A stretch of DNA of 64,000 nucleotides from Candidatus Magasanikiibacteriota bacterium. Lineage in GTDB: Bacteria; Patescibacteriota; Patescibacteriia; Magasanikbacterales; GWA2-37-8. Below, in pieces: positions 4,550 through 64,000 of the stretch (its first letter is position 1; every line of letters starts with the position of its first letter). The stretch lies in contig JACOYB010000006.1 in assembly GCA_016182085.1 (NCBI GenBank), positions 88,980 to 152,979 on the forward strand, read 5' to 3'. The translations under genes and the position numbers were made by a program. The notes beneath the pieces are model-generated. The model saw only the letters and a program-made list of their open reading frames with translations, had not been told where the DNA came from and did not search any database.

Positions 4550-4846
4550 TTATTTTTCAGCTTTGGCAGCTTTTTTAGCTGTCTTTTTGGCAACAGCAAC
4601 CGCTTTCTTTACTTTCTTGCCTTTGCGGGCGGCAGCGGCGGCAGTTTGCTTACTGAATTTTTCTTGGAATTTCTCTACGCGGCGAGCGGTATCAACGAAT
4701 TTCTGTTTGCCGGTATAAAAAGGATGGCACTTGCTGCAAAGTTCCACGCGGATAGATTTCATAGTGCTGCCAGTGGTAAATTTGTTGCCGCAAGCGCACA
4801 CTACTTCTGTATCATTGTGATATTCTGGATGAATGTCTTTCTTCAT
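4550..4846 (-). CDS. rpmE: 50S ribosomal protein L31 with Lys/Ala-rich C-terminal extension
   Basis: MKKDIHPEY...CxC...[10 protein letters not shown] is canonical zinc-binding L31. The last ~35 aa are KA-rich. Confidence 0.85.
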
Positions 4847-5054
4847 ATGAAATTAAGGTTTCATATATTTGCAGCTCGTTCGGAAAAGGTCGCAAGCAAC
4901 CTTTTCTCTCACTTCACTACAATTATAATTTAGCAAAAATGTTATTTAGTGCTAATATACTAGCATTATATTAAATAAATGTCAACCCCGCTAAGCGGGG
5001 TCAGCCGAGCGCATTATTCATATACAAAGGCTGTTTTTTAAACGAAATTCCACA

Positions 5055-5090
5055 GGTTGACAAACATGCCATTTTGTGGTATTATTTCTC
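5055..5090 (+). promoter_or_regulatory. sigma70-like promoter (TTGACA-17-TATTAT)
   Basis: Consensus -35 and near-consensus -10 with 17-nt spacer. Implies the downstream ORF starts at the internal ATG at 5120. Confidence 0.45.
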
Positions 5091-5119
5091 GTTATTTAAG
5101 ACAAATAATCTATAACTAT

Positions 5120-5515
5120 ATGTCAGAGATTGCCAGCGCTAGAGGTCAGATAGATGCACGACCAAAACGATCTAGCTTACCCAGCGCAGATCAGTTGCCG
5201 TCCATAATGATTGAGAAGGGTCTGGAAGCAGAAGAAAACGCTTTAAAACCAGCTCAAAGTGAAGTTGTGGGTGCAGAATCTGAAAGTGAAGATGAAGTTA
5301 TAAATAAAATGGCTAGTTTAGATGATGAGATAAAGAAAGTGATGGCTACCATTAAAACATATCAAAGTTTTACTAAAACACATGCTTCAAACCCAGATAT
5401 TATGGCTAAGCTAAATGAAGAAAGCAGGGTTTTTGCGGAAAAATATGACAATCTTTTGGCGCAACGGGAGGCTTTAAAATTGAAGCTGAGCAAATTGCGC
5501 GCCGCCAAAAACTAA
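5120..5515 (+). CDS. hypothetical acidic/coiled-coil protein
   Basis: ORF track gives 5057..5515. The promoter inside its 5' end argues for the ATG at 5120. No recognisable domain. Confidence 0.4.
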   Translation: MSEIASARGQIDARPKRSSLPSADQLPSIMIEKGLEAEENALKPAQSEVVGAESESEDEVINKMASLDDEIKKVMATIKTYQSFTKTHASNPDIMAKLNEESRVFAEKYDNLLAQREALKLKLSKLRAAKN

Positions 5516-7412: not shown

Positions 7413-7425
7413 ATTTTTACTTTAA

Positions 7426-7462
7426 ATAAACCCTCGGGCTAACCGGGGGTTTATTTATATTT
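7426..7462 (+). terminator. rho-independent terminator after tsf
   Basis: AAACCCTCGGGCTAACCGGGGGTTT hairpin followed by a T-rich run. Confidence 0.5.
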
Positions 7463-7639
7463 TATTATTAGTTGAATTTAAGTTATCCACTGTTTTTATG
7501 TTGCAGAAGTTTTTTTTAAAAAAGTATGGTATACTAAAGCCAAATTAAATAACTTCTTCCAAAATGGCGCTTGTCACGTTTGTTATGGATTCTTAAAAGA
7601 AAAGGATTTTACCGATCCGGTTTTTTATTTTTTAAAAAT

Positions 7640-7751
7640 TAAAAACATTTAATTCAAACCACTCACTCATTTCGTATATACTAAGGTATATACTCATTCG
7701 TTCGGAACTAAATTAAAAACATTTAATTTAATTTACTCACTCATTTCGTAT
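7640..7751 (+). promoter_or_regulatory. tandemly duplicated hairpin+box leader element upstream of giant surface protein gene
   Basis: Two copies of AAAAACATTTAATT..ACTCACTCATTTCGTATAT. The second copy ends at the ATG. Copy 2 contains the hairpin AAATTAAA-aaca-TTTAATTT. Confidence 0.5.
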
Positions 7752-10700
7752 ATGGCGAAAAAAATTATCCAACATGTTTGGAAGAAAAAGATTGTCTATA
7801 TGCTGTCTGTTATGGCAGTGGCAGTAGGCGTAGGTTTTTATGCTTCTTTTTTTATAGGGAGAAGCGCAAGCGCCTTATCTGGCGTAACTTTAGCCGATAA
7901 TGATACTACCGGATTCGGGCTTGATGGCAGGGATTTTTCTATAACTTGGACTCCCGGTGATCAGCCTGCGGGATTTTTATATACCAAAATTTTTATTACC
8001 ACTAATACGGTTAATTTAACCACAAGCACAGCCGAAACTACCGCGTGCGCCGGATCCGCTTGTGTGCCGGTTGGCTATTTTAGCCAGTGGACTAATGCCG
8101 CCCATGTAGCACCTCAGTTTATGGGTACAGATAGTTCGGGTGTTGCCTGGAGAACCAGCACATCGTATGTAGCCTGGGTATTTGCTTCCACTACAGATCC
8201 AAATAATGCTTTATTAGTTTCCTCTACGGTTGTTTCTTATGCTAATACTTTTGATATTGTTTCTGATACAAGTAAACCGCAAATAGATCACAGCCCAGCG
8301 CATGTGGCGACAGCAAATAAAACCGCCTATTTTAATGCCTTTGTATTTGACGATCAGACTTCCGGCGCTAGTTTTGCCAGCACTTCTGTAGGTACAGAAT
8401 ATTTTAGACTGTTTTATACTTCCAGCACTAATCCGTGGTCATCTGTTAATTCCACTACCGGGCAGGCTTATTCCGGAGAATCAGATTTTTATAGTTTTCA
8501 AGTTCCTACCACTTCAATGGGCGCGGCTGGCGCAACATTCAAGTATTATTTAGTAGCCGCTGATGCGACCGGTAATACTCGTTATTTTTGCGCCAATCCA
8601 TCGGCAGCCAGCGCCACGGATTGTCAAAATAATCCCTTTACTCTTACTACCGTGTCAGCTGGATCAAGAACTGTGGGCGGTACTATCACCAGCGGCGGTT
8701 CCGCTTTAGGCAGCGCGTTTGTTTTTGCCGGCGGTTTTGCCAGCTCTTTGCCGGCAGTTCTTACCAATGGAAGTGGTGTTTATTCTCTTACGGCTTTGCC
8801 AAATAACGACGCTTTTGATATTGCCGCGCATAAGGTGGGTTATTGTCGCAGTATGCGTTTTGAAACTATTGGCACTACCGACAAAACCGGCGTGGATATG
8901 AGTTTGGGAAATAGCAGTTGTGGTTTTTATGATCCGGGTATGGGCGGAGGCGCGGGCGGCGCGCCGATGGTAATGTTTTCCGGACCTCCGGAAGGAATGC
9001 AAGGAGTGTCGGTTTCTGAAAGTATCCGTGTTGGTTTTAATCAGCCCATGGACGGAGCGACTATAAACGATACCAATGCCGCCGATAGTGGCAGTAATGT
9101 TTATTTAACTACCGATGATGGTACAACCAAAGTGGCCGGAACGGTAACTTACTGCGCCAGCAATGCTTCCGCCGGCTGTTCATCTTTGTTTTCAATGGAT
9201 AATAATACTATTTTATTTGTACCAAGCAGCACGCTTGCTTCCAGCACTTTTTATACGCTGGTTATTACCAGTGCGGTAAAAGGTCAGGGCGGTCAGTCGG
9301 TGCAAGGAAATGTTTCCGGTGGCGGCCATAAAATATCCTTTGGCACAAGCGGTGGCGCATTAAATATTGGTTCTTTTGGCACAAGCGGACAATTCATGCC
9401 TCCGTATGTAAAATCAATGACTCCGGCTCCAGGTATGACTGTAGGTGGTAACGTAAGTCTGACTGTAGAATTTAGCGAAGCTATGAGTTCGGCTTCAATT
9501 AATCAGACTAACGTCAGATTATTTAATATAACAAATGGGGCTAATACCGAAGTTACTTTGATTGGAAGTAATATTACTTTAGATTCTAACGAACGTCGTT
9601 TTGTAACCATTACTCACAGCGCGTTAAGCGCCGGGACTTACGAAGTCAGAGTTTTGGGTGCAGCAGCCAATGCCAGCGGTATAAGCATGCGTCCGCCCGC
9701 GAACGGTTCTGATATTGCTTTTAAGTCTTCCTTTATTGTGTCTGGTACTGATAACACTGTTCCAACTGTTTATCCTTCATTTGCTTCAGGGACAACTGGC
9801 ATGGCCGTAAATAATGTGTTTACCTTTGGTTTTAATGAACAGTTATTATTTAATACGGTTAATACTACGAATGTAACTTTATCTAGAGGAGCAACATCTG
9901 TGGGTGTCACCGTAAAATATGATTCCGGTTTAAATAATGTATTTGTTGTTCCAAACACCGCTTTGGTGCCAAATACAGTTTATACGTTGGTATTTAGTTC
10001 TTCCGTAACCGATGCGGCCAGCAATCGTTTGCCTACCAGTACCTATACCTATACAACCGGTGGCGGTGATACTGTAATTCCTATTCTTAAAGAAGCGCAA
10101 TGTGATGATTATACCTGTAAATTTTTCTTTACCGAACCAATGAATCACGCTTCACAAGTTGACGGTGCGACGTCTTGGGTGAGCAGCACTTTAAATCATT
10201 TAAGAATATCTCTAACTCAAGGCGGCGCAGATAAAATAGTTACTTCCACCGCCATGGCTTATGATTCAGTTAATTTTGTTATTACGGCCACCGGAGTCGG
10301 TTTAACACCTCTTAATGCAGGTGGCGCCAACTTTAGTGCAACTATTAGCGGCGTTGGAGATCTTTCCGGCAACGTAATGGCTTCTACCGTATTATCCGGG
10401 CCAGTTAAAGATAGTAAAGAAACTTTTGGTAATTTTGGCGGCGGTGGCATGTTTGCTCCTCCTACCACCGGATTCACCGGCGGCACAATTGGCGGTGGAG
10501 AATTCACACCAATGGGCTTTGGTTCCTTTACCGTTGATCAGTTTGCTTTTGGCCAGGCCGATATGGCGTTTCCCTTTAATTCAATGGCCAGCCAAGATGC
10601 GAATGTATTTCAAATAAAGTTTAACCCGGGAGTAGCTGTGGCCGCAGGAGATAAAGTAGTAATCACTTTTCCAGTTGGCACCGATGTTAATAGCGCTGGC

Positions 10701-13700: not shown

Positions 13701-14528
13701 GAAAAAGGAGACTATGTGCCGGTAGAAGGCGGGTTTACAATTGATGCAACCAACAATACTATTACCGGACAGGTAAACCACCTTACCGATTTCGTAATTG
13801 CCTACGATCCTCCAGCAGCTGCAGCCGCAGCCGCAAGCACAGGCAGTTCCGGCACCGCTGCCGGCGGGATGGCTTCGCCTGTACCTGCCGCACAAGCCAC
13901 TACTAGCTCTGTAGTTGTAAATACTGTCACTACCACTGCTTCCACATTGCCAGTCACAAATAAAATAGATAGCTCTAAAGCTTATGGTTCGGCTCCATCC
14001 GTTTCGGTTAAGGTGTTATTTATTCATAACTTGGGAATGGGATCAAAAGGCGAAGAAGTCAGACAGTTGCAAGCTAAACTTAGAGAATTAGGCTTCTTCA
14101 AGCATCCAACCAACACTGGATTATTCGGGCCAGCTACCAAAGCTGCAGTGGTAGCATTCCAAAAGGCACGAGGATTAAAACCTTACCCGGGCACGCTCGG
14201 ACCTGCTACCAGAGCAGCGCTGAATAGTTTGACAGAACCAAGCGAATCTCTAGTAGTTCCGCCAGTATCAACAGACTCAAGTTTGTTGCCGGCAGGATCT
14301 ACGGCAGGAGTATTTGTCAGCGCTTTGAAGCTCGGCTCTAAAGGAGAAGAAGTCAGGCAGCTGCAAGCTAAACTTAGAGAGTTAGGTTTCTTCACTTATC
14401 CTAATGACACGGGGGTATTCGGACCAGCTACCAAAGCGGCAGTTGTAGCCTTCCAAAAGGCGCAGGGATTAAAACCTTATCCGGGCTGGGTTGGTCCAGG
14501 CACGCGCGCCGCGCTAAACAGTCTCTAA
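7752..14528 (+). CDS. giant (2258 aa) cell-surface protein: N-terminal signal anchor, many Ig-like/Big and carboxypeptidase-regulatory-like beta-sandwich repeats, poly-Ala/Thr linker, two C-terminal peptidoglycan-binding (PG_binding_1-like) domains
   Basis: One uninterrupted 6.8-kb ORF. Thr/Ser/Gly/Val-rich beta-strand periodicity. Two C-terminal copies of SKGEEVRQLQAKLRELGFF...G.FGPATKAAV.AFQKA.GL, the three-helix PG-binding fold motif. Confidence 0.8.
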   Translation: MAKKIIQHVWKKKIVYMLSVMAVAVGVGFYASFFIGRSASALSGVTLADNDTTGFGLDGRDFSITWTPGDQPAGFLYTKIFITTNTVNLTTSTAETTACAGSACVPVGYFSQWTNAAHVAPQFMGTDSSGVAWRTSTSYVAWVFASTTDPNNALLVSSTVVSYANTFDIVSDTSKPQIDHSPAHVATANKTAYFNAFVFDDQTSGASFASTSVGTEYFRLFYTSSTNPWSSVNSTTGQAYSGESDFYSFQVPTTSMGAAGATFKYYLVAADATGNTRYFCANPSAASATDCQNNPFTLTTVSAGSRTVGGTITSGGSALGSAFVFAGGFASSLPAVLTNGSGVYSLTALPNNDAFDIAAHKVGYCRSMRFETIGTTDKTGVDMSLGNSSCGFYDPGMGGGAGGAPMVMFSGPPEGMQGVSVSESIRVGFNQPMDGATINDTNAADSGSNVYLTTDDGTTKVAGTVTYCASNASAGCSSLFSMDNNTILFVPSSTLASSTFYTLVITSAVKGQGGQSVQGNVSGGGHKISFGTSGGALNIGSFGTSGQFMPPYVKSMTPAPGMTVGGNVSLTVEFSEAMSSASINQTNVRLFNITNGANTEVTLIGSNITLDSNERRFVTITHSALSAGTYEVRVLGAAANASGISMRPPANGSDIAFKSSFIVSGTDNTVPTVYPSFASGTTGMAVNNVFTFGFNEQLLFNTVNTTNVTLSRGATSVGVTVKYDSGLNNVFVVPNTALVPNTVYTLVFSSSVTDAASNRLPTSTYTYTTGGGDTVIPILKEAQCDDYTCKFFFTEPMNHASQVDGATSWVSSTLNHLRISLTQGGADKIVTSTAMAYDSVNFVITATGVGLTPLNAGGANFSATISGVGDLSGNVMASTVLSGPVKDSKETFGNFGGGGMFAPPTTGFTGGTIGGGEFTPMGFGSFTVDQFAFGQADMAFPFNSMASQDANVFQIKFNPGVAVAAGDKVVITFPVGTDVNSAGLDTFSPFYDDFNQFAAGIVTSTAVATDTVSRKVTVTLGVSGSPAPNDSLTIDLRKIINPAIPKDPSTGGYTVTIQLTNNAGTTVKASKTSMPYFIMAGGTNTLNVQVVAGVNTSTPTAGANGTVFMHGGGPAGPMDKSITLTNGVISAIDGTSATGINFTNLPNGCYFLGTDPFVTLGTLDYFGQMSPEPICLNGSVSTTKYILLSPATSGGGSVTATIKFSGITNFNGADIDIFAGGPGRFVVKTLSGVTTTLAAGYDIKLPANGQWFIGVGPAMPKGASGGKPVSLPGVPPSPITLEVSGLGGGTPTLSRPSSMPLASGVAFNDTTDIITFSFATADKVVTGTVKDGAGNVLSSIEVFMHRQGFGAPVFGITNASGTFNLSVSDYGLYEIGVFKDGMPPSFKQLEVKTDGSDADSNPDIFLQGKQITGSNPLVLTLKKANYTISGKVLDSSNSAVSYAPVFASDGSGNSVFGQTGSDGSYSVFVDAGTWTIRAELPPSKTGDTCGTFSKTVTVTTESQSSQNITPSTATCYTLSGSVTVGSVNLSNTPIFIEEWDDGSNKPVQGGIKRGTVTDSNGAYSAKVIGSKTYRIGTVDPTYGELSATKGVVSSDATQNISVASTSTVSFVFTGGTASMNGFIELKNTSDKTKRVTKQVTGLNTTTALTVEASVTYNYFVDVFGVGRFTGEVVAGNTATVNLGVSANAFITVTGTIYSNETVSSTVLAGTLVTFFSSSTGITQTATANASGTYSINIKAGTYEVSADIANYLPGQAAQITSFTTTTPAYDFGGASPDQGSLIASNRTIEGYVSSSAGATITDGYAWATNASGTVVTAAIDSTGRYSLPVTDGSWTVEAVAAGASETTKSGAVTISGSDSANNNFALTNDGSRIATSTSGIVAASSGGSVNDTTGTGIKISAGQGVLETGSGDVSISLEKTFTAPDTSGFDALANATFKISATGDSTIKDLNGNAEIQLDYSAMVSQIPSGVAEADLKLMYYSAEKGDYVPVEGGFTIDATNNTITGQVNHLTDFVIAYDPPAAAAAAASTGSSGTAAGGMASPVPAAQATTSSVVVNTVTTTASTLPVTNKIDSSKAYGSAPSVSVKVLFIHNLGMGSKGEEVRQLQAKLRELGFFKHPTNTGLFGPATKAAVVAFQKARGLKPYPGTLGPATRAALNSLTEPSESLVVPPVSTDSSLLPAGSTAGVFVSALKLGSKGEEVRQLQAKLRELGFFTYPNDTGVFGPATKAAVVAFQKAQGLKPYPGWVGPGTRAALNSL
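14011..14525 (+). repeat. tandem pair of PG-binding-domain coding modules (copy set 1)
   Basis: The 14080-14230 and 14361-14525 modules are highly similar to each other and to 16209-16360 and 16453-16619 at nucleotide level. Confidence 0.6.
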
Positions 14529-14744: not shown

Positions 14745-16622
14745 ATGGAATTGTCTTCTCTGCAAAAAAAGATGAGCGCATCCAAAATGTTGGTGCTCGC
14801 TTTTTTAGTCGGACTTTTAAGTCTGATCCTTTTAGTTTTCAATGCCCAAGCTGCGCCAGTGGCGCCAACCGGCACTCCGACCACTACGGTTTTAACAGCA
14901 CAGACTATTATGATCGGCGGTATTACCAGCGGCGCTAGTGACAGCGGTTTAAACTGGTCTTTTGCCACTTCTTTAAATAATGTTACCAGAACAATTGTTA
15001 ATGTAACTACCCCTACCACCACAAAACAATTTACATTTACCGGTTTAGCTACCAACACATTATACTATTTGGCTGTAGCCTCAGGCGATGGCGCGGCCAC
15101 TTCCAGTTATGCTACTTCTTCGGCTGTTTATACCCTAGCTGATACTCCCGGTTCTCCAACTCTTTCCACTGCGGCTGTGCAGGGTTTTAAAGTAACAATT
15201 AATTCTTCCTCCAACCCTTCAAATACTACCTATATTGTTCGTGATACGGTATCCTCCACCCTTACCAAGTACTTGCAATCAGATCAGACATGGGGAAATG
15301 CAACGGCCACATTTACTTATGCCCAACTTGGAGGTTTAAGCGGTACGACTACTGCTGGTTTAGCTACAAATACTTTGCACAGAATTAGTGTCGCAGCGGT
15401 TAATGGCGACGCTGTTACTACCACGTATAGTTCTACAGTTGATTTTTATACCCTTGCCGCAACTCCCGGCACCGCCACAGTTACTTCCAGCGCGGTAACT
15501 ACATTAAATGTTACTGTCAATGCCGGCACTAATCCTACAACCGCTTCCACAACCTTTATAGTAAAAGATACCGGTTCAACATTGCTTTATCTTCAGTCCA
15601 ATGGAACTTGGGGTTCTGCTACGGCTACGCTTACTTATGCCCAACTTGGCTCAGGAAGCGCCACTACGACCACTGGTTTGACTGCCAATACTTTACACAC
15701 TATCAGTGTGGCTGCGGTCAATGGAGACAGTTCTGCTACTACCAGTTATAGCACTGTCGCCAGTTCTTACACGCTCGCCAACACTCCGTCTTCCGTATCT
15801 TTATCAGCGGCGGCAAATGGTTTTAACTTAACTTGGAGCGGGGATGCTACCCAATACTATGTAGAAGATGAAACTGCAGGCTCAAACTCCGGATGGATCA
15901 CCGCAACAACATATTCAGTGGGGGGTATTAATTGCGGAACTTCGCGCACCTTCCGAGTTAAAGGAAGAAATGGAGATACTACAGATACTGCGTTTGCCAC
16001 ATCTGTTAGCGCCACTACCAATGCTTGTGGAGGAGGTGTTGCGGTAGCTGTCCCTGCCACTCCGGCTACACCTGCCACGCCTGCTGTGCCCGGCGTTTCT
16101 CCCGCTGTCCCTGCCACCCCAGCTTCAGTTTCCTTACCGCCTACCGCTTCTCCGGTTGCCGTCTTTGTTCATACTTTGCGCGCAGGTACAAGAGGTGGGG
16201 AAGTTAAACAGCTACAACAAAAACTTAGAGAGTTAGGTTTCTTCAAATATTCTAGCAATACCGGCTTGTTTGGGGCTATTACCAAAGCCGCAGTCGTATC
16301 TTTCCAGAAAGATCAAGGACTAACTCCTTCCGGCGTAGTTGATGCAGCCACACGAGACGCTCTTAATGGAGTAAGCGCTACGGCCCCTCAAGCAGCTGTT
16401 GGTCAGTTTGTAAGTAGTCTCGCTGTTGGTTCCAGAGGCGAGGAAGTAAGAATGTTGCAAGCCAAATTACGAGAATTAGGCTACTTTACTTATCCAACCG
16501 ACACCGGTGTATTTGGCCCCGCTACCCGAGCCGCAGTACAAGCGTTTCAAAGAGCGCAAGGGCTGGCTCCATTTCCAGGATTTGTTGGTCCGGGCACGCG
16601 CGCCGCGTTAAACAATCTCTAA
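14745..16622 (+). CDS. secreted surface protein with four FN3-like ~110-aa repeats, Pro/Ala/Thr linker and two C-terminal PG-binding domains
   Basis: Signal peptide (MELSSLQKKMSASKMLVLAFLVGLLSLILLVFNAQA). Four YTLA.TPG...L..ISVAAVNGD repeats. (ATP)n linker. C-terminal anchor paralogous to that of the giant protein. Confidence 0.75.
   Translation: MELSSLQKKMSASKMLVLAFLVGLLSLILLVFNAQAAPVAPTGTPTTTVLTAQTIMIGGITSGASDSGLNWSFATSLNNVTRTIVNVTTPTTTKQFTFTGLATNTLYYLAVASGDGAATSSYATSSAVYTLADTPGSPTLSTAAVQGFKVTINSSSNPSNTTYIVRDTVSSTLTKYLQSDQTWGNATATFTYAQLGGLSGTTTAGLATNTLHRISVAAVNGDAVTTTYSSTVDFYTLAATPGTATVTSSAVTTLNVTVNAGTNPTTASTTFIVKDTGSTLLYLQSNGTWGSATATLTYAQLGSGSATTTTGLTANTLHTISVAAVNGDSSATTSYSTVASSYTLANTPSSVSLSAAANGFNLTWSGDATQYYVEDETAGSNSGWITATTYSVGGINCGTSRTFRVKGRNGDTTDTAFATSVSATTNACGGGVAVAVPATPATPATPAVPGVSPAVPATPASVSLPPTASPVAVFVHTLRAGTRGGEVKQLQQKLRELGFFKYSSNTGLFGAITKAAVVSFQKDQGLTPSGVVDAATRDALNGVSATAPQAAVGQFVSSLAVGSRGEEVRMLQAKLRELGYFTYPTDTGVFGPATRAAVQAFQRAQGLAPFPGFVGPGTRAALNNL
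16155..16619 (+). repeat. tandem pair of PG-binding-domain coding modules (copy set 2)
   Basis: Shares long identical nucleotide runs (e.g. AAACTTAGAGAGTTAGGTTTCTTCA, GGTCCNGGCACGCGCGCCGCG) with 14011-14525. Confidence 0.6.
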
Positions 16623-18380: not shown

Positions 18381-18469
18381 TTTTATCTTTTTATATATAG
18401 GTTCCCATATATACTCACTCGCTGCGCCACCGCTGAAGCTTTAGCGGCACGCGGTCGGAAATAATTAAG

Positions 18470-18574
18470 TACATTTAATTATTTCTCTTACTCACTTCGC
18501 ATATATTTAAGATATATTTTCATTCACTCGGAAATAAATAAGCAAGCTCATTTATTTCCTCATTCATTTCAAAT
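18470..18574 (+). promoter_or_regulatory. hairpin+box leader element (two modules) upstream of gap
   Basis: Module 1 is GAAATAATTAA-gtacat-TTAATTATTTC (11-bp perfect hairpin) followed by TCTTACTCACTTCGCATATAT. Module 2 is GGAAATAAA..TTTATTTCC hairpin followed by TCATTCATTTCAAAT-ATG. Confidence 0.5.
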
Positions 18575-19570
18575 ATGAACATTGCTATAAATGGTTTTGG
18601 TAGAATAGGAAGACAAGCTTTTAAAGTCGCATTTGGCAGAAAAAAAATAAAAATTGTTGGCATCAATGATTTAACCGATACCAAAACCTTGGCCCATCTT
18701 TTAAAATATGACACTGCTTATGGAAAATATGGCAGTGAAGTGGATTTTGATGAAAAAAATTTAATTGTGGATGGCGAAAAAATTCCCGTGTTTGCGGAAA
18801 AAGATCCGAGCGTGTTGCCTTGGGAAAAATTAAAAGTAGATGTGGTTTTGGAGTGCACCGGCAGATTTACCAAAAAAGAAGATGCCGAGCTGCACCTCAA
18901 AGCCGGCGCTAAAAAAGTAGTAATTAGCGCTCCGGCCAAAGGCGGCGATGTACCAACCTATGTGCGCGCCGTAAATTGCGCCAAGTGCAACAAAGAAACT
19001 AGTACCGTAATAAATAACGCCTCCTGCACCACCAACAGCATTGGTCCGGTGATGGCCGTGCTTAATGAAACATTTGGTATAGAAAAAGCGATGATGACTA
19101 CCGCTCACGGCTATACTGCCGATCAGAATTTACAAGACGGCCCACACAAAGATTTACGTCGTGCTAGAGCTGCGGCCGAAAATATTGTGCCTACCACCAC
19201 CGGAGCGGCTATTGCCGTTACCGAAGTTATTCCTGGACTGGCCAATGTATTTGATGGGTTGGCTTTGCGTGTGCCAGTACCAACGGTTTCTGTATCAGAC
19301 ATGACGGTTTTGCTAAAGAAAAATGTTACTAAAGAAGAAATAAATCAAGCAATGATAGATGCTAGTAAGACAGGCAGATTTGCTGGCGTTTTAACCACTA
19401 CTACCGAACAATTAGTATCATCCGATTTTATCGGCAATACCCACTCTGCCATTGTGGATTTAAGCCTTACCAATGTAGTGGGTGGAAATTTGGTAAAAGT
19501 TGTATCTTGGTATGACAATGAAACCGGTTATGCGAATAGATTGGTGGAGATAGCGGAATTGTATGTTTAA
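18575..19570 (+). CDS. gap: type I glyceraldehyde-3-phosphate dehydrogenase
   Basis: NGFGRIGR Rossmann motif and ASCTTNS active-site cysteine. Confidence 0.9.
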   Translation: MNIAINGFGRIGRQAFKVAFGRKKIKIVGINDLTDTKTLAHLLKYDTAYGKYGSEVDFDEKNLIVDGEKIPVFAEKDPSVLPWEKLKVDVVLECTGRFTKKEDAELHLKAGAKKVVISAPAKGGDVPTYVRAVNCAKCNKETSTVINNASCTTNSIGPVMAVLNETFGIEKAMMTTAHGYTADQNLQDGPHKDLRRARAAAENIVPTTTGAAIAVTEVIPGLANVFDGLALRVPVPTVSVSDMTVLLKKNVTKEEINQAMIDASKTGRFAGVLTTTTEQLVSSDFIGNTHSAIVDLSLTNVVGGNLVKVVSWYDNETGYANRLVEIAELYV

Positions 19571-24525: not shown

Positions 24526-24621
24526 GTTTGTTATATAAATGTCTTCTCAGGATGTAACAAAAAGAGTATAATATGTATTATCAAATATATAGGTATTTTG
24601 TTACTCAAGCAACATATTAAA

Positions 24622-57327: not shown

Positions 57328-57930
57328 TTATTGTTTTTCAATCACTTTATCAATAATGCCGTATTTCAGCGCTTCTTCGGCACTCATAAAATTATCTCTA
57401 TCCGTATCTTTTTCAATCGTAGCCAAGTCTTTGCCAGTATGTTTTGACATAAGCTGGTTTAGTCTTTCTTTGATCTTTAAGATTCGTTCGGCGCGGATTT
57501 TGATGTCGCTCGCCTGGCCTTCCATACCGCCCATAACCTGGTGGATCATAATTTCGGAATTAGGCAGGGCAAATCGTTTGCCTTTGGCGCCAGCGCCCAA
57601 AAGGAACGCGCCCATGCTTGCAGCCATGCCGATACAAATAGTGCTTACATCTGGTTTGATATATTGCATGGTGTCAAAGATAGCCATGCCAGCGGTTACC
57701 GATCCACCCGGAGAATTGATGTATAATTTGATATCTTTTTCCGGATTTTGATTTTCCAAAAACAACAGTTGAGCAATAATTACATTGGCCACGTTATCGT
57801 CTACTTGGGTGCCTAGAAATATAATACGGTCCTGCAGCAAGCGGGAATAAATATCGTATGCTCGTTCGCCAAAGTTGGTTTTTTCAATTACGGTTGGAAT
57901 AAGGTATTGGGATTTAATTTCATTATTCAT
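57328..57930 (-). CDS. clpP: ATP-dependent Clp protease proteolytic subunit
   Basis: [11 protein letters not shown] (catalytic Ser) and MIHQ (His) motifs. 200 aa. Confidence 0.9.
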
Positions 57931-58075
57931 AATGGAAATGAATGAGTAAAATATTTAGCTTGCTAAAGTATTTTCGAATGAATGAGATTATTTACAAGCG
58001 AAGTGAGTGAAAAGGACATTTATGTACTTTTCCGAACAAGCGCAGTAAATATGGAATATATATGGGCTTTAGTCC
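57931..58075 (-). promoter_or_regulatory. hairpin+box leader element (two modules) upstream of clpP
   Basis: Minus strand reads GAAAAGtAC-ataaat-GTcCTTTTC + ACTCACTTCGC, then GAAAATAC..AGCAAGCT..TATTTTA + CTCATTCATTTCCATT-ATG. Same architecture as the 18470-18574 element. Confidence 0.5.
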
Positions 58076-58121
58076 ATATATAATATGTAAAAGTTAATTT
58101 AGATTTAATTCTACCTTGTTT

Positions 58122-58956
58122 TTAGCGTAGCGTCAAAATTCGGTTAATCGTGCTCTCTATAGTGCCATCCACCGTAAAACCAGCTGCCTTTTTATGTCCG
58201 CCGCCGCCCAGTTTTTTGGCGAGCGCGGCCACATCCACAGTATCATGAGTCGTGCGGAAGCTGCCTTTAATTTTTCCATCATCTGTTTCTTTTATAAATA
58301 ACGAAATGGTCGCGTCATTTAGTTTGTTTAAGAAATTTGATATGCCTTCCACATCCGTATCTCCAGCTCCGTGCTGGATCAAATCTTTCTTGGTTAAGTA
58401 TGTATAAGCAATATCGGTTTCAGGCTTTTTAGTTAATCTGCTTAGGACCAGTCCCCATAATTTAAGTAGGTGTATAGATTTATTTTGCAACAGTGATTTG
58501 TTTATAATATTCCAATTGCCGCCCAGGCGCAGTAGCTCTCCGGCCGCGGTCAGAGCGGTATACGATGTAGCGGAATTAGTAAAATTATCCGTATCAGTGA
58601 TAAGTCCGGTTAACAGAGACGTGGCCATCGGGGGAGTGATACGAATGCTATTTACTTTGAAAAAACTATAGACCACTTCAGTTGTGGAAGCCCATTTATC
58701 CATAACGATTAATTGTATCGGCGTCTTTAAATACCTCCGGATCATTACTAACAATATCTATATTATGAAGAAAATTGAATTTATCCGGCACGGGTGAGAG
58801 GCAGAAAATTTTGACTTTTTTCCCTAAGGATTGGAGGTACTGGGCAAAGGCCGTGGAGGCGCCCAAAGTGTCTCCGTCCGGGCTGGGATGGGAAACCAAA
58901 GCGAGGGTGTTGGCACCCTGGATATGCTTATGAATTTGTTTGGCGGCGGTTTGCAT
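58122..58956 (-). pseudogene. nrnA-like DHH/DHHA1 phosphoesterase gene split by a frameshift near 58700-58755, with DHH motif III degenerated
   Basis: ORF 58956..58696 carries the DHH N-terminal motifs (SHPSPDGDTLGAS). ORF 58754..58122 carries GDT-like and GGGH DHHA1 motifs in another frame. The two ORFs overlap by 59 nt. The expected IDHH motif reads MDKW. Confidence 0.5.
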
Positions 58957-63462: not shown

Positions 63463-63486
63463 TTTTATATATAGGTAAACCATATA

Positions 63487-63545
63487 TTCTCATTCACTCG
63501 GAAATAATCAAAAACATTTGATTATTTCTCTCATTCATTTCGAAT
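63487..63545 (+). promoter_or_regulatory. hairpin+box leader element upstream of tlpA-like gene
   Basis: TTCTCATTCACTCG + GAAATAATCAAA-aaca-TTTGATTATTTC (12-bp perfect hairpin) + TCTCATTCATTTCGAAT-ATG. Confidence 0.5.
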
Positions 63546-64000
63546 ATGGATAAAAAAACATTTGGTATAATTTTGTTTGTAGGAGTATTTCTGGTCGTTG
63601 GCGGCGCCACGGTGTTGGCGTTTGGAAATTTTAATTCCGGTAGCGACCCCGTATCTGCCTATAAGGCAAGTGTGGCCGCTTCGGACAAGGAGGTTGAAAA
63701 GCATGCGCAAGGGGTAGCTGCTCCAAATTTTACCCTGCCATTACTAGGCGGAGGTACCGTTAGCATGGCCGATTTTCGCGGCAAAAAACCGGTAGTATTG
63801 GCTTTTTGGGCCAGCTGGTGCCCTAATTGTCGGCGCGATATGCCCAAGATGAACGCTTATTATGAAAAATACAAAGACAAAGTGGCTGTGGTGACTATAA
63901 ATATGCAAGAAGATGTTAAAACCGTAGCGGATTTTATGGCCGCTGGGAACCTTACCTTGCCGGTGGCGCTTGATGCCGGTTCCGCGGCGCAAACTTACGG
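63546..64000 (+). CDS. TlpA/ResA-like membrane-anchored thioredoxin-fold thiol:disulfide oxidoreductase (3' end truncated by window)
   Basis: N-terminal TM anchor and WCPNC active site. Runs off the window end. Confidence 0.7.
   Translation, partial: MDKKTFGIILFVGVFLVVGGATVLAFGNFNSGSDPVSAYKASVAASDKEVEKHAQGVAAPNFTLPLLGGGTVSMADFRGKKPVVLAFWASWCPNCRRDMPKMNAYYEKYKDKVAVVTINMQEDVKTVADFMAAGNLTLPVALDAGSAAQTY

Follow-up and report, generated by a model that had tools for sequence, protein, structure and literature searches.

Why should genes as different as gap, clpP, a tlpA-like gene and the gene of a giant surface protein all open with what looks like the same piece of leader? The question is raised by a 64-kb stretch of DNA with 41% GC (hereafter the window) from the Candidatus Magasanikiibacteriota contig JACOYB010000006.1, positions 88,980–152,979; Magasanikbacteria are tiny, uncultured bacteria from groundwater. 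An earlier note on this DNA described, at these four loci, a hairpin followed by a conserved box that ends at the ATG, and read the arrangement as a strong promoter or 5′ untranslated region (5′UTR) shared by genes for abundant proteins. The hairpin-plus-box arrangement is indeed present at 4/4 of the named loci and the gene identities agree with Pfam, which places GAPDH at 18575, ClpP at 57930–57328 (minus strand), an AhpC/TSA-redoxin at 63546 and a 2258-aa PG_binding/Big_5 protein at 7752. We consider it somewhat better than an even bet that the element is a new, portable, transcribed and structured 5′-leader or intercistronic RNA of Magasanikbacteria and their relatives, which acts on translation initiation.

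A single copy of the element, referred to here as a module, is ~65 nt long and is composed of a closing helix (P1), a mismatch helix and an inner hairpin (P2), which together make one long irregular hairpin. In P1 the 7 nt that precede the first box (box1), TATAWWC, are complementary in reverse to GWWTATG, which consists of the final four leader bases and the ATG, and P1 thus takes in the A and U of the start codon. P2 is an AT-rich hairpin variable in sequence and length, and for this reason the distance between box1 (CUCAUUCRYUCGG) and the second box (box2; CUCAYUCAUUUC) varies from 15 to >70 nt; the spacing from box2 to the start codon is constant (TCATTT, 5 nt, ATG). We counted nine instances of the core box TCAYTCAYT in the window, 9/9 inside the four leaders and 9/9 in the same sense as the gene that follows. 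Although the earlier note treated the boxes as linear motifs, their sequences are better read as the two sides of an irregular helix than as free tracts, because a purine-pyrimidine (R-Y) pair between them covaries, as described below. In this middle section two-base Watson-Crick steps (A-U/U-A, then R-Y/Y-A, then G-C) are separated by tandem U.C/C.U mismatches, an alternation which follows from the 4-nt periodicity of UCAY. The loop AGCAAGCT, reported as common to the gap and clpP leaders, is real and recurs in many further genomes.

The strict two-box pattern ATTCRYTCGGAA-N15-35-CTCAYTCAYTTC matched the window three times, against 0.00 matches expected from shuffles, and was run once over 185,579 species genomes, from which it returned 108 stretches. 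All but three of these (105/108) belong to ~41 metagenome-assembled genomes (MAGs) of Patescibacteria, the majority named Magasanikbacteria. The matches in Butyrivibrio, Bryobacterales and Woesearchaeota have no hairpin or P1 and were taken as chance. Pattern and covariance-model matches together amount to ~140 module copies in the ~41 Patescibacteria species genomes. The 113 pattern copies counted as real form the basis of the placement and P1 statistics, the P1/P2 pair counts were taken from alignment A1, and a larger, model-derived alignment (A6) holds 132 copies. A long variant of P2 (module ~100 nt) is conserved at L014 (e.g. 2677–2776), L100, L073, L071 and L001 as a hairpin in two tiers, GGAAAUAUCCAG...CUCACUGGCUAUUUC, that carries a pyrimidine-rich internal loop of its own. 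Many third-party annotation (TPA) MAGs titled 'uncultured Gammaproteobacteria' (CAZUFD01, CAYIJG01, CAZQLV01 and others) also bear the module; these are evidently Patescibacteria under what seems to be a wrong label, and CAZUFD01 is 90–93% identical to the window.

The placement of the module is strikingly uniform. The ATG forms the last three bases of P1, in the sense orientation, in 97/113 copies (86%), and the remainder comprises 4 upstream members of arrays, 2 copies with the ATG displaced by 1–6 nt and 10 orphans. Where a co-directional open frame lies upstream (n = 66; these are open frames, not verified genes), its stop is ≤40 nt before P1 in 29 cases. Copies so close behind an upstream stop must belong to a polycistronic RNA, unless the cassette has a promoter of its own. 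Fixed orientation, the ATG inside P1 and intercistronic placement, taken together, point to the sense-strand RNA as the form in which the module probably acts.

That the helices are real is indicated by covariation. P1 is fully paired (7/7 positions) in 74 of the 113 copies and has on average 6.47 pairs, compared with 5.52 under a permutation null (sd 0.06), with its two variable positions changing jointly among UA, AU, GC and CG. The same covariation is present in the 96 single modules, none of which has a second module upstream, and this rules out that it is a by-product of tandem duplication. Among the P1+P2 cells of A1, 93.4% form standard pairs (77% in column shuffles) and 229 are changed on both sides, and when the partner is slid by 1–3 columns pairing falls to 38–51%; the corresponding figure for A6 is 92%, against 78% when shuffled. 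Outside P1 and P2 a single pair stands out by mutual information, the R of ATTCRYTCGG with the Y of CTCAYTC, for which we counted GC 73, AU 26, AC 13 and GU 0 (Fisher p = 4e-16; GC 88 and AU 30 in A6). The pairs that flank it show compensatory AU or GC changes in a few sequences. In a 63%-GC Uhrbacteria genome P1 reads GCUUCC/GGAAGU and the boxes are unchanged. Moreover, P1 is retained in orphan and tandem copies although its 3′ strand there ends in TATA, AATA or TATT and holds no start codon, P1 types are uncorrelated with P2 types, and the mutual-information ranking reveals no subfamily structure. Both lines of support to which the earlier note had looked, conservation in relatives (the same module in ~41 species genomes) and covariation across related genomes (of P1, P2 and the R-Y pair), are thus found.

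Ahead of each first module lies a further TATA-rich palindromic hairpin, P0 (e.g. TATATGGGC-TAAA-GCCCATATA), the stem of which carries compensatory changes between genomes. The 3′ arm of P0 overlaps the 5′ strand of P1 by ~4 nt, and P0 and P1 are therefore mutually exclusive. When the upstream segment was folded alone, the P1 5′ strand had 4 nt or more paired in 79% of copies, as opposed to 19% of shuffles. By prediction, the energy of the P1-forced fold differs from that of the AUG-free fold by a median of +1.4 kcal/mol, with 59% of copies inside ±2, and P0+P2 comes out as the best fold for L003 and P1+P2 for L054. In the tandem arrays (gap, clpP, L029, L042 and L059) the P1 3′ strand of one module serves as the 5′ arm of the next P0, so that the choice of fold could propagate through the array.

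Based on this architecture, we propose that the leader may alternate between P0+P2, which would leave the AUG free, and P1+P2, which would pair it, and that the module could in this way set or switch initiation in a lineage that dispenses with Shine-Dalgarno (SD) pairing, perhaps with an effect on mRNA processing or stability as well. The near-invariant middle helix would then be a docking site for one shared trans-acting partner, for which a protein, the 30S subunit with S1, a nuclease or a ligand are candidates. We incline to a role in which the module promotes or gates the entry of ribosomes over one of pure repression, since the products of the carrier genes are usually abundant and the cassette splits tightly coupled genes; a repressor-with-decoy model also fits the terminator-followed orphans described further on. 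A bolder version, possible but in our view doubtful, is a genome-wide regulon in which a single RNA-binding protein or the 30S subunit reads the U.C-mismatch helix, tips the P0/P1 toggle and gates start codons, while the cassette spreads by copy-and-paste. Such a regulon might encompass tens of genes per genome, as estimated from the 4 leaders in the 64-kb window; ribosomal proteins, glycolysis, chaperones and surface proteins would be opened or closed co-ordinately, stand-alone modules with terminators could act as decoys, and the cassette would amount to an SD-independent replacement for the ribosome-binding site.

Several observations weigh against an initiation-controlling leader RNA and have to be kept in mind. 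G-U pairs (29) are no more frequent than A-C mismatches (31), and the wobble counts are consequently silent on which strand folds. P1 is short and AU-rich, and the middle helix is treated as a loop by the energy model. P1 and P2 fall into few recurrent types that are swapped between copies and genomes, and there must accordingly have been fewer independent compensatory events than the cell counts imply. Further, the strict pattern used to collect the copies makes the boxes look more invariant than they are; model-only matches (clpP, window 18440 and 4864, L109) tolerate wider variation. P0 or the P1 5′ strand might lie outside the transcript in some copies. About 9% of copies are orphans, some of them antisense to their neighbours (L044, L064 and window 4864), and in a 90–93%-identical relative the same genes manage without the module.

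Among the orphans, modules followed by intrinsic-terminator-like hairpins and without a start codon occur at L103 5755–5816 (minus strand) and L019 2448–2512 (minus strand), and at L109 3825–3956 (minus strand) two tandem modules follow trmD and are succeeded by a GC hairpin. These terminator-followed modules may be small RNAs or attenuators. Directly 3′ of the orphan module of L019 there is a perfect DnaA-box-like sequence, TTATCCACA. The orphan of L064 (~740–850) sits inside an inverted repeat, CCCCTCCCC ... GGGGAGGG, between two opposite-strand genes.

How initiation proceeds in this organism bears directly on the proposal. An SD-like 4-mer was found for 4/43 genes of the window compared with 3/43 in a control window and a background of 7.9%. 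The statement that the leaders have no SD therefore stands, and the implication that this is special to them does not, given that the whole window is without SD enrichment; SD-less initiation characterises the organism as a whole. In a metagenome scan, which yielded full 16S genes, the 3′ end of 16S rRNA in L109, L110 and L112 is GGATCACCTCCTTTCT, with a canonical CCUCC tail, and in L109 the 16S gene is on the same contig as three modules. An altered anti-SD, or pairing between box and 16S rRNA, is ruled out by this canonical tail and by the lack of any box complement in 16S beyond chance. In a search for a trans-acting anti-box RNA, box2-like sequences were nearly all inside modules and an isolated complement was not found. 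As a separate observation, the 16S gene of one module-bearing genome (L091 6659–6890) has a ~100-nt insertion near its 5′ end; insertions of this kind have been reported for rRNAs of the candidate phyla radiation (CPR).

Comparison with known regulators and RNA families gave no match. Searches by tblastn with E. coli and B. subtilis CsrA and Hfq queries gave no homologue in 880 kb of fragments from ~41 genomes, and a CsrA-type leader, in which at least two GGA in loops are expected, is not seen: each module has a single GGA, which lies at the foot of the P2 stem outside any loop and gives way to GAA in clpP and L109. The SD-pairing motif of ROSE and fourU thermometers, U(U/C)GCU or UUUU, has no counterpart in these SD-less leaders, where it is the AUG itself that is occluded. 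The BoxA element of lambda nut and rrn, a (Y)GCUCUUUA consensus beside a hairpin, was also compared, and CUCUUUA is in neither box1 nor box2. Rfam 15 at the gathering threshold returned only tRNAs in the window and 7 loci, and in permissive E-value mode with two leaders it gave only noise (E>0.5, bits far below threshold). The literature contained no match for the box sequences, for a Magasanikbacteria riboswitch or for a ribosome-binding site or leader of Patescibacteria, and candidate phyla go unmentioned in the 224-motif paper.

Considering the TATA-rich sequence of P0 and P1, one may ask whether the cassette acts as DNA, as a promoter or operator. TATAWWC or the TATA palindrome would then be the −10 element or the operator of a common transcription or sigma factor, the CTCAYTC repeats would bind a protein and the hairpin would stabilise the 5′ end of the mRNA. 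It is true that TATAWWCT includes the −10-like TAnnnT, that the palindromes resemble operators and that a cassette between tightly packed genes could bring a promoter with it. However, scans of the four leaders for sigma-70 −35/−10 elements found 0–2 sites versus 1.2–2.2 expected, none at a common position. Canonical promoters do exist elsewhere, as judged from a near-consensus sigma-70-like TTGACA-17-TATTAT at 5047–5075 (plus strand), in the region before the open reading frame (ORF) 5057–5515, and from TTGACG-17-TAGAAT at 58108..58136 (minus strand; 10/12 in the consensus scan, a consensus match only), which lies ahead of P0 and thus upstream of the entire clpP leader. Further, a box spacing that ranges so widely is unsuited to fixed protein-DNA contacts, and covariation with the bases ahead of the ATG, or with one in box2, is not to be expected of a −10 box. 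We thus regard the DNA reading as improbable. The strong shared promoter of the earlier note fares no better, because no sigma-70-like site keeps a fixed position, the clpP site is upstream of the leader and about a third of copies stand directly behind a co-directional gene, which leaves no space for a promoter. Its other half, a common 5′UTR of genes for abundant proteins, is supported and generalises to those of ribosomal proteins, groES, trx, ssb, recA, eno, pgk, ribonucleotide reductase (RNR) and others across the ~41 species genomes.

The genes behind the module are diverse. The 92 downstream proteins contain 128 Pfam families with no common pathway; they range from ribosomal proteins and glycolysis to chaperones, DNA repair and surface proteins. 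SSB occurs three times, class II RNR, thioredoxin, L24 and response regulator twice each, and H+-PPase, RecA, GlpX, PGK and enolase are also represented. By reading of N-termini we recognised L34, L36, L31, S4, S14, L11, GroES, SecE, RuvC, LigA, transaldolase and many secreted proteins in addition. The orthologues of ssb, trx, rplX, RNR and response-regulator genes retain the module across species, with P1 and P2 sequences that differ, for example in the ssb leaders of L047, L060 and L073.

This diversity also bears on whether the module could be a metabolite or ion riboswitch, or an RNA thermometer, with the P1 start codon (or in few copies a terminator) as expression platform. A conserved core between covarying helices (P1, P2 and the R-Y pair) is what one would expect of a riboswitch, as are mutually exclusive P0 and P1 and varied outputs (the AUG in P1 mostly, an intrinsic terminator in L103 and L019); tandem arrays are known for some riboswitches, and an imperfect AU-rich helix over the AUG would suit a thermometer. 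Yet a coherent pathway was not found among the 92 downstream proteins, the core is an almost purine-free mismatched helix unlike known ligand pockets, close relatives have the same genes without the module, and a thermometer would not need invariant sequence. We accordingly give a ligand- or temperature-sensing device little credence as an alternative to the initiation-controlling leader.

Comparison of the window with a 90–93%-identical MAG uncovered three whole-cassette presence/absence differences. At the bactofilin gene the relative has P0 plus module (module at L014 5074–5138) and the window has none (46428), the empty site reading ACTAT|G and the filled one ACTAT[AGGGGCCC...CATTTCAAATAT]G. 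A 122-nt cassette (module at L014 2677–2776) separates a methyltransferase gene from the ORF after it in the relative, and in the window the two are 1 nt apart (48690); in L014, a 92%-identical relative, the stop of the upstream gene shifts into the P0 arm. Conversely, the orphan at 4864–4927 of the window corresponds to an empty site in L061, a 90%-identical relative, and AATTA repeats flank the filled site. The direct repeats at filled sites are thus TAT twice and AATTA once, and they fit insertion or slippage deletion between fold-made TATAT copies equally well. In addition, the P2 of the giant-gene leader has been swapped wholesale between the window and L061 despite 90%-identical flanks. 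With three cassette differences and one complete P2 replacement, the module behaves as a unit in gain, loss and conversion.

Such turnover is an argument for the main rival, a selfish repeat of the miniature inverted-repeat transposable element (MITE) or repetitive extragenic palindromic (REP) type, similar to the Correia elements of Neisseria or to ERIC, RUP or BOX, that invades AT-rich sequence before starts, the link to the ATG being a target-site or tolerance effect. The element is multi-copy and modular (~140 copies, polymorphic at three site pairs) and forms tandem arrays; the cassette differences at 90–93% identity are flanked by short direct repeats, the P2 exchange is consistent with a mobile unit, orphan and antisense copies exist, and the 7-nt P1 arms are inverted repeats readable as termini, yet they vary and covary. 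Free orientation and register are not seen in the 113 copies, however: 86% are in sense and joined to the ATG with single-base precision. The boxes are near-invariant across genomes that are only ~70% identical in conserved genes, and also in the 63%-GC Uhrbacteria; orthologous genes of different species keep the module; P1 and P2 types are uncorrelated and without subfamilies; and the internal R-Y pair covaries. No link of a transposase to the module was found, viral contigs gave 0 matches, slippage deletion explains the direct repeats as well as insertion does, and mobility would in any case be compatible with function. Because of the precision at the ATG, the conservation of the core and the retention by orthologues, we think a selfish repeat unlikely as the full explanation.

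With the initiation-controlling leader as the favoured reading, the window loci can be described feature by feature. For the extents of the leaders the earlier note had the loci right and the starts wrong, as the gap leader begins at 18392 and the clpP leader at 58082. The gap leader (plus strand) opens with the P0 hairpin TATATATAGGTTCCCATATATA at 18392..18413 (from the sequence and a palindrome scan), whose 3′ arm overlaps the P1 5′ strand of a degenerate module 1 at 18408..18505 (model match 18440–18505, E=6e-8). In this module the P1 arms TATATAC/GCATATA, as read from the sequence, make 6/7 pairs, box1 is broken by an extra GC hairpin, P2 is GAAATAATTAA-gtacat-TTAATTATTTC and box2 is TCTTACTCACTTCG. 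An inter-module hairpin, ATATAT-TTAAG-ATATAT, at 18501..18517 (RNAfold and sequence) consists of the P1 3′ strand of module 1 and the P1 5′ strand of module 2. The latter module (18513..18577; 73.6 bits, E=2e-16, and a pattern match) has P1 TATATTT/AAATATG with the start codon at 18575–18577, box1 TCATTCACTCG, box2 CTCATTCATTTC and P2 at 18531–18558 with the loop AGCAAGCT.

The leader of the giant-protein gene (plus strand) retains a remnant of an upstream module at 7637..7674, with a hairpin at 7637–7654 (RNAfold) and box2 CACTCACTCATTTCG at 7660–7674; in L061, a close relative, this remnant is decayed at the orthologous leader. It is followed by the P0 hairpin GTATATAC-TAAG-GTATATAC at 7674..7693 (RNAfold) and by the module at 7687..7754 (72.7 bits, E=4e-16, and a pattern match), with P1 TATATAC/GTATATG and the ATG at 7752–7754. 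A strong terminator-like hairpin of 15 pairs with a T-rich tail lies at 7423–7457 (plus strand), after tsf and before this leader. The giant protein and the following ORF (14745–16622) have C-termini encoded by a PG_binding_1 repeat present in 4 copies (166–189 nt, 67–79% identical) at 14019–14522 and 16164–16616.

In the clpP leader (minus strand) the P0 hairpin TATATATGGACTAAAGCCCATATATA occupies 58057..58082 (sequence and palindrome scan), a degenerate module 1 lies at 57993..58047 (a weak model match of 17.9 bits, E=0.1, with the box TTCACTCACTT) and module 2 at 57928..57992 (63.6 bits, E=1e-13), the ATG being 57930–57928. The foot pair of P2 in module 2 is A-U instead of G-C, with both sides changed; this pair is AU in 8 sequences. 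The redoxin leader (plus strand) occupies the entire 83-nt gap after the DsbD_TM gene: its P0, TATATAGG-TAAA-CCATATAT, at 63465..63488 (RNAfold and sequence) begins 3 nt past the stop of that gene, and the module at 63483..63548, with P1 TATATTC/GAATATG and the ATG at 63546–63548, is the best-scoring copy of the window (85.4 bits, E=2e-19).

The orphan of the window (plus strand; P0 4845–4866, module 4864–4927; model E=1.6e-5 and sequence) has no ORF behind it and is directed away from rpmE. The rpmE gene (L31; ~4550–4847, minus strand) starts within the palindrome ATATGAAA-TTAAGG-TTTCATAT at 4845–4866, so that its AUG is also in a hairpin arm on its own strand and its upstream region is the antisense of the orphan module. 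The weak copy of the box claimed ahead of pgk at 24598–24621 was not recovered by the covariance model even at E≤10; a TATAAT box is found nearby, at 24567–24572.

CPR/Patescibacteria make up a large uncultured share of bacterial diversity, and to our knowledge their control of gene expression is almost wholly uncharted. Here is a lineage that keeps the anti-SD yet skips the SD, and in which genes likely to encode abundant proteins share a folded leader with the start codon in its closing helix. A start-codon-fused folded leader cassette of this kind appears to be undescribed so far. Were the module to recruit or gate ribosomes, it would represent a distinct bacterial solution to start-site selection, and it could also be used to flag genes that are highly expressed or co-regulated in unculturable genomes. 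Small, portable and gained or lost as a unit, it would be a natural expression cassette of possible engineering use, and its >130 natural variants offer a clean test case for dispersed repeats becoming regulatory RNA.

Among known systems, Correia and ERIC (enterobacterial repetitive intergenic consensus) elements come close as short, multi-copy, palindromic intergenic cassettes, polymorphic between close strains, often gene-adjacent and co-transcribed as hairpins that alter the fate of the mRNA. Those elements are genus-limited, occur in either orientation, have long terminal inverted repeats with a TA duplication and are not fused to start codons, whereas 86% of the module copies keep one orientation and register with respect to the ATG and the core is conserved over a class-level lineage. 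With translational riboswitches and thermometers the module shares two exclusive helices, one occluding the initiation codon, and a core between covarying stems; it differs in having no SD to sequester, no coherent regulon or identified ligand, a purine-poor core and a copy number per genome far above that of any riboswitch class.

The RNase III hairpins of phage T7 are likewise irregular, internally mismatched and intercistronic, and they stand before highly expressed genes, where processing can free the initiation region. The module is also an irregular mismatched hairpin just upstream of start codons, but RNase III sites are less sequence-invariant, and any cleavage of the module would be hypothetical. 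Bacteroidetes resemble the present lineage in that the anti-SD is kept in 16S rRNA and SD motifs are not enriched before genes; their leaders, in contrast, are unstructured and A-rich, and we know of no shared structured cassette there. A further comparable case is the E. coli rpsA leader, which is SD-less and structured, precedes the AUG of a very abundant protein and is recognised through S1, its hairpins and conserved non-SD elements appearing to be needed for efficient, regulated initiation. Both are SD-less structured leaders directly before the AUG; unlike rpsA, a single-gene autoregulatory case with GGA in its hairpin loops, the module is multi-copy on dozens of unrelated genes and combines an AUG-containing closing helix with a pyrimidine-mismatch helix.

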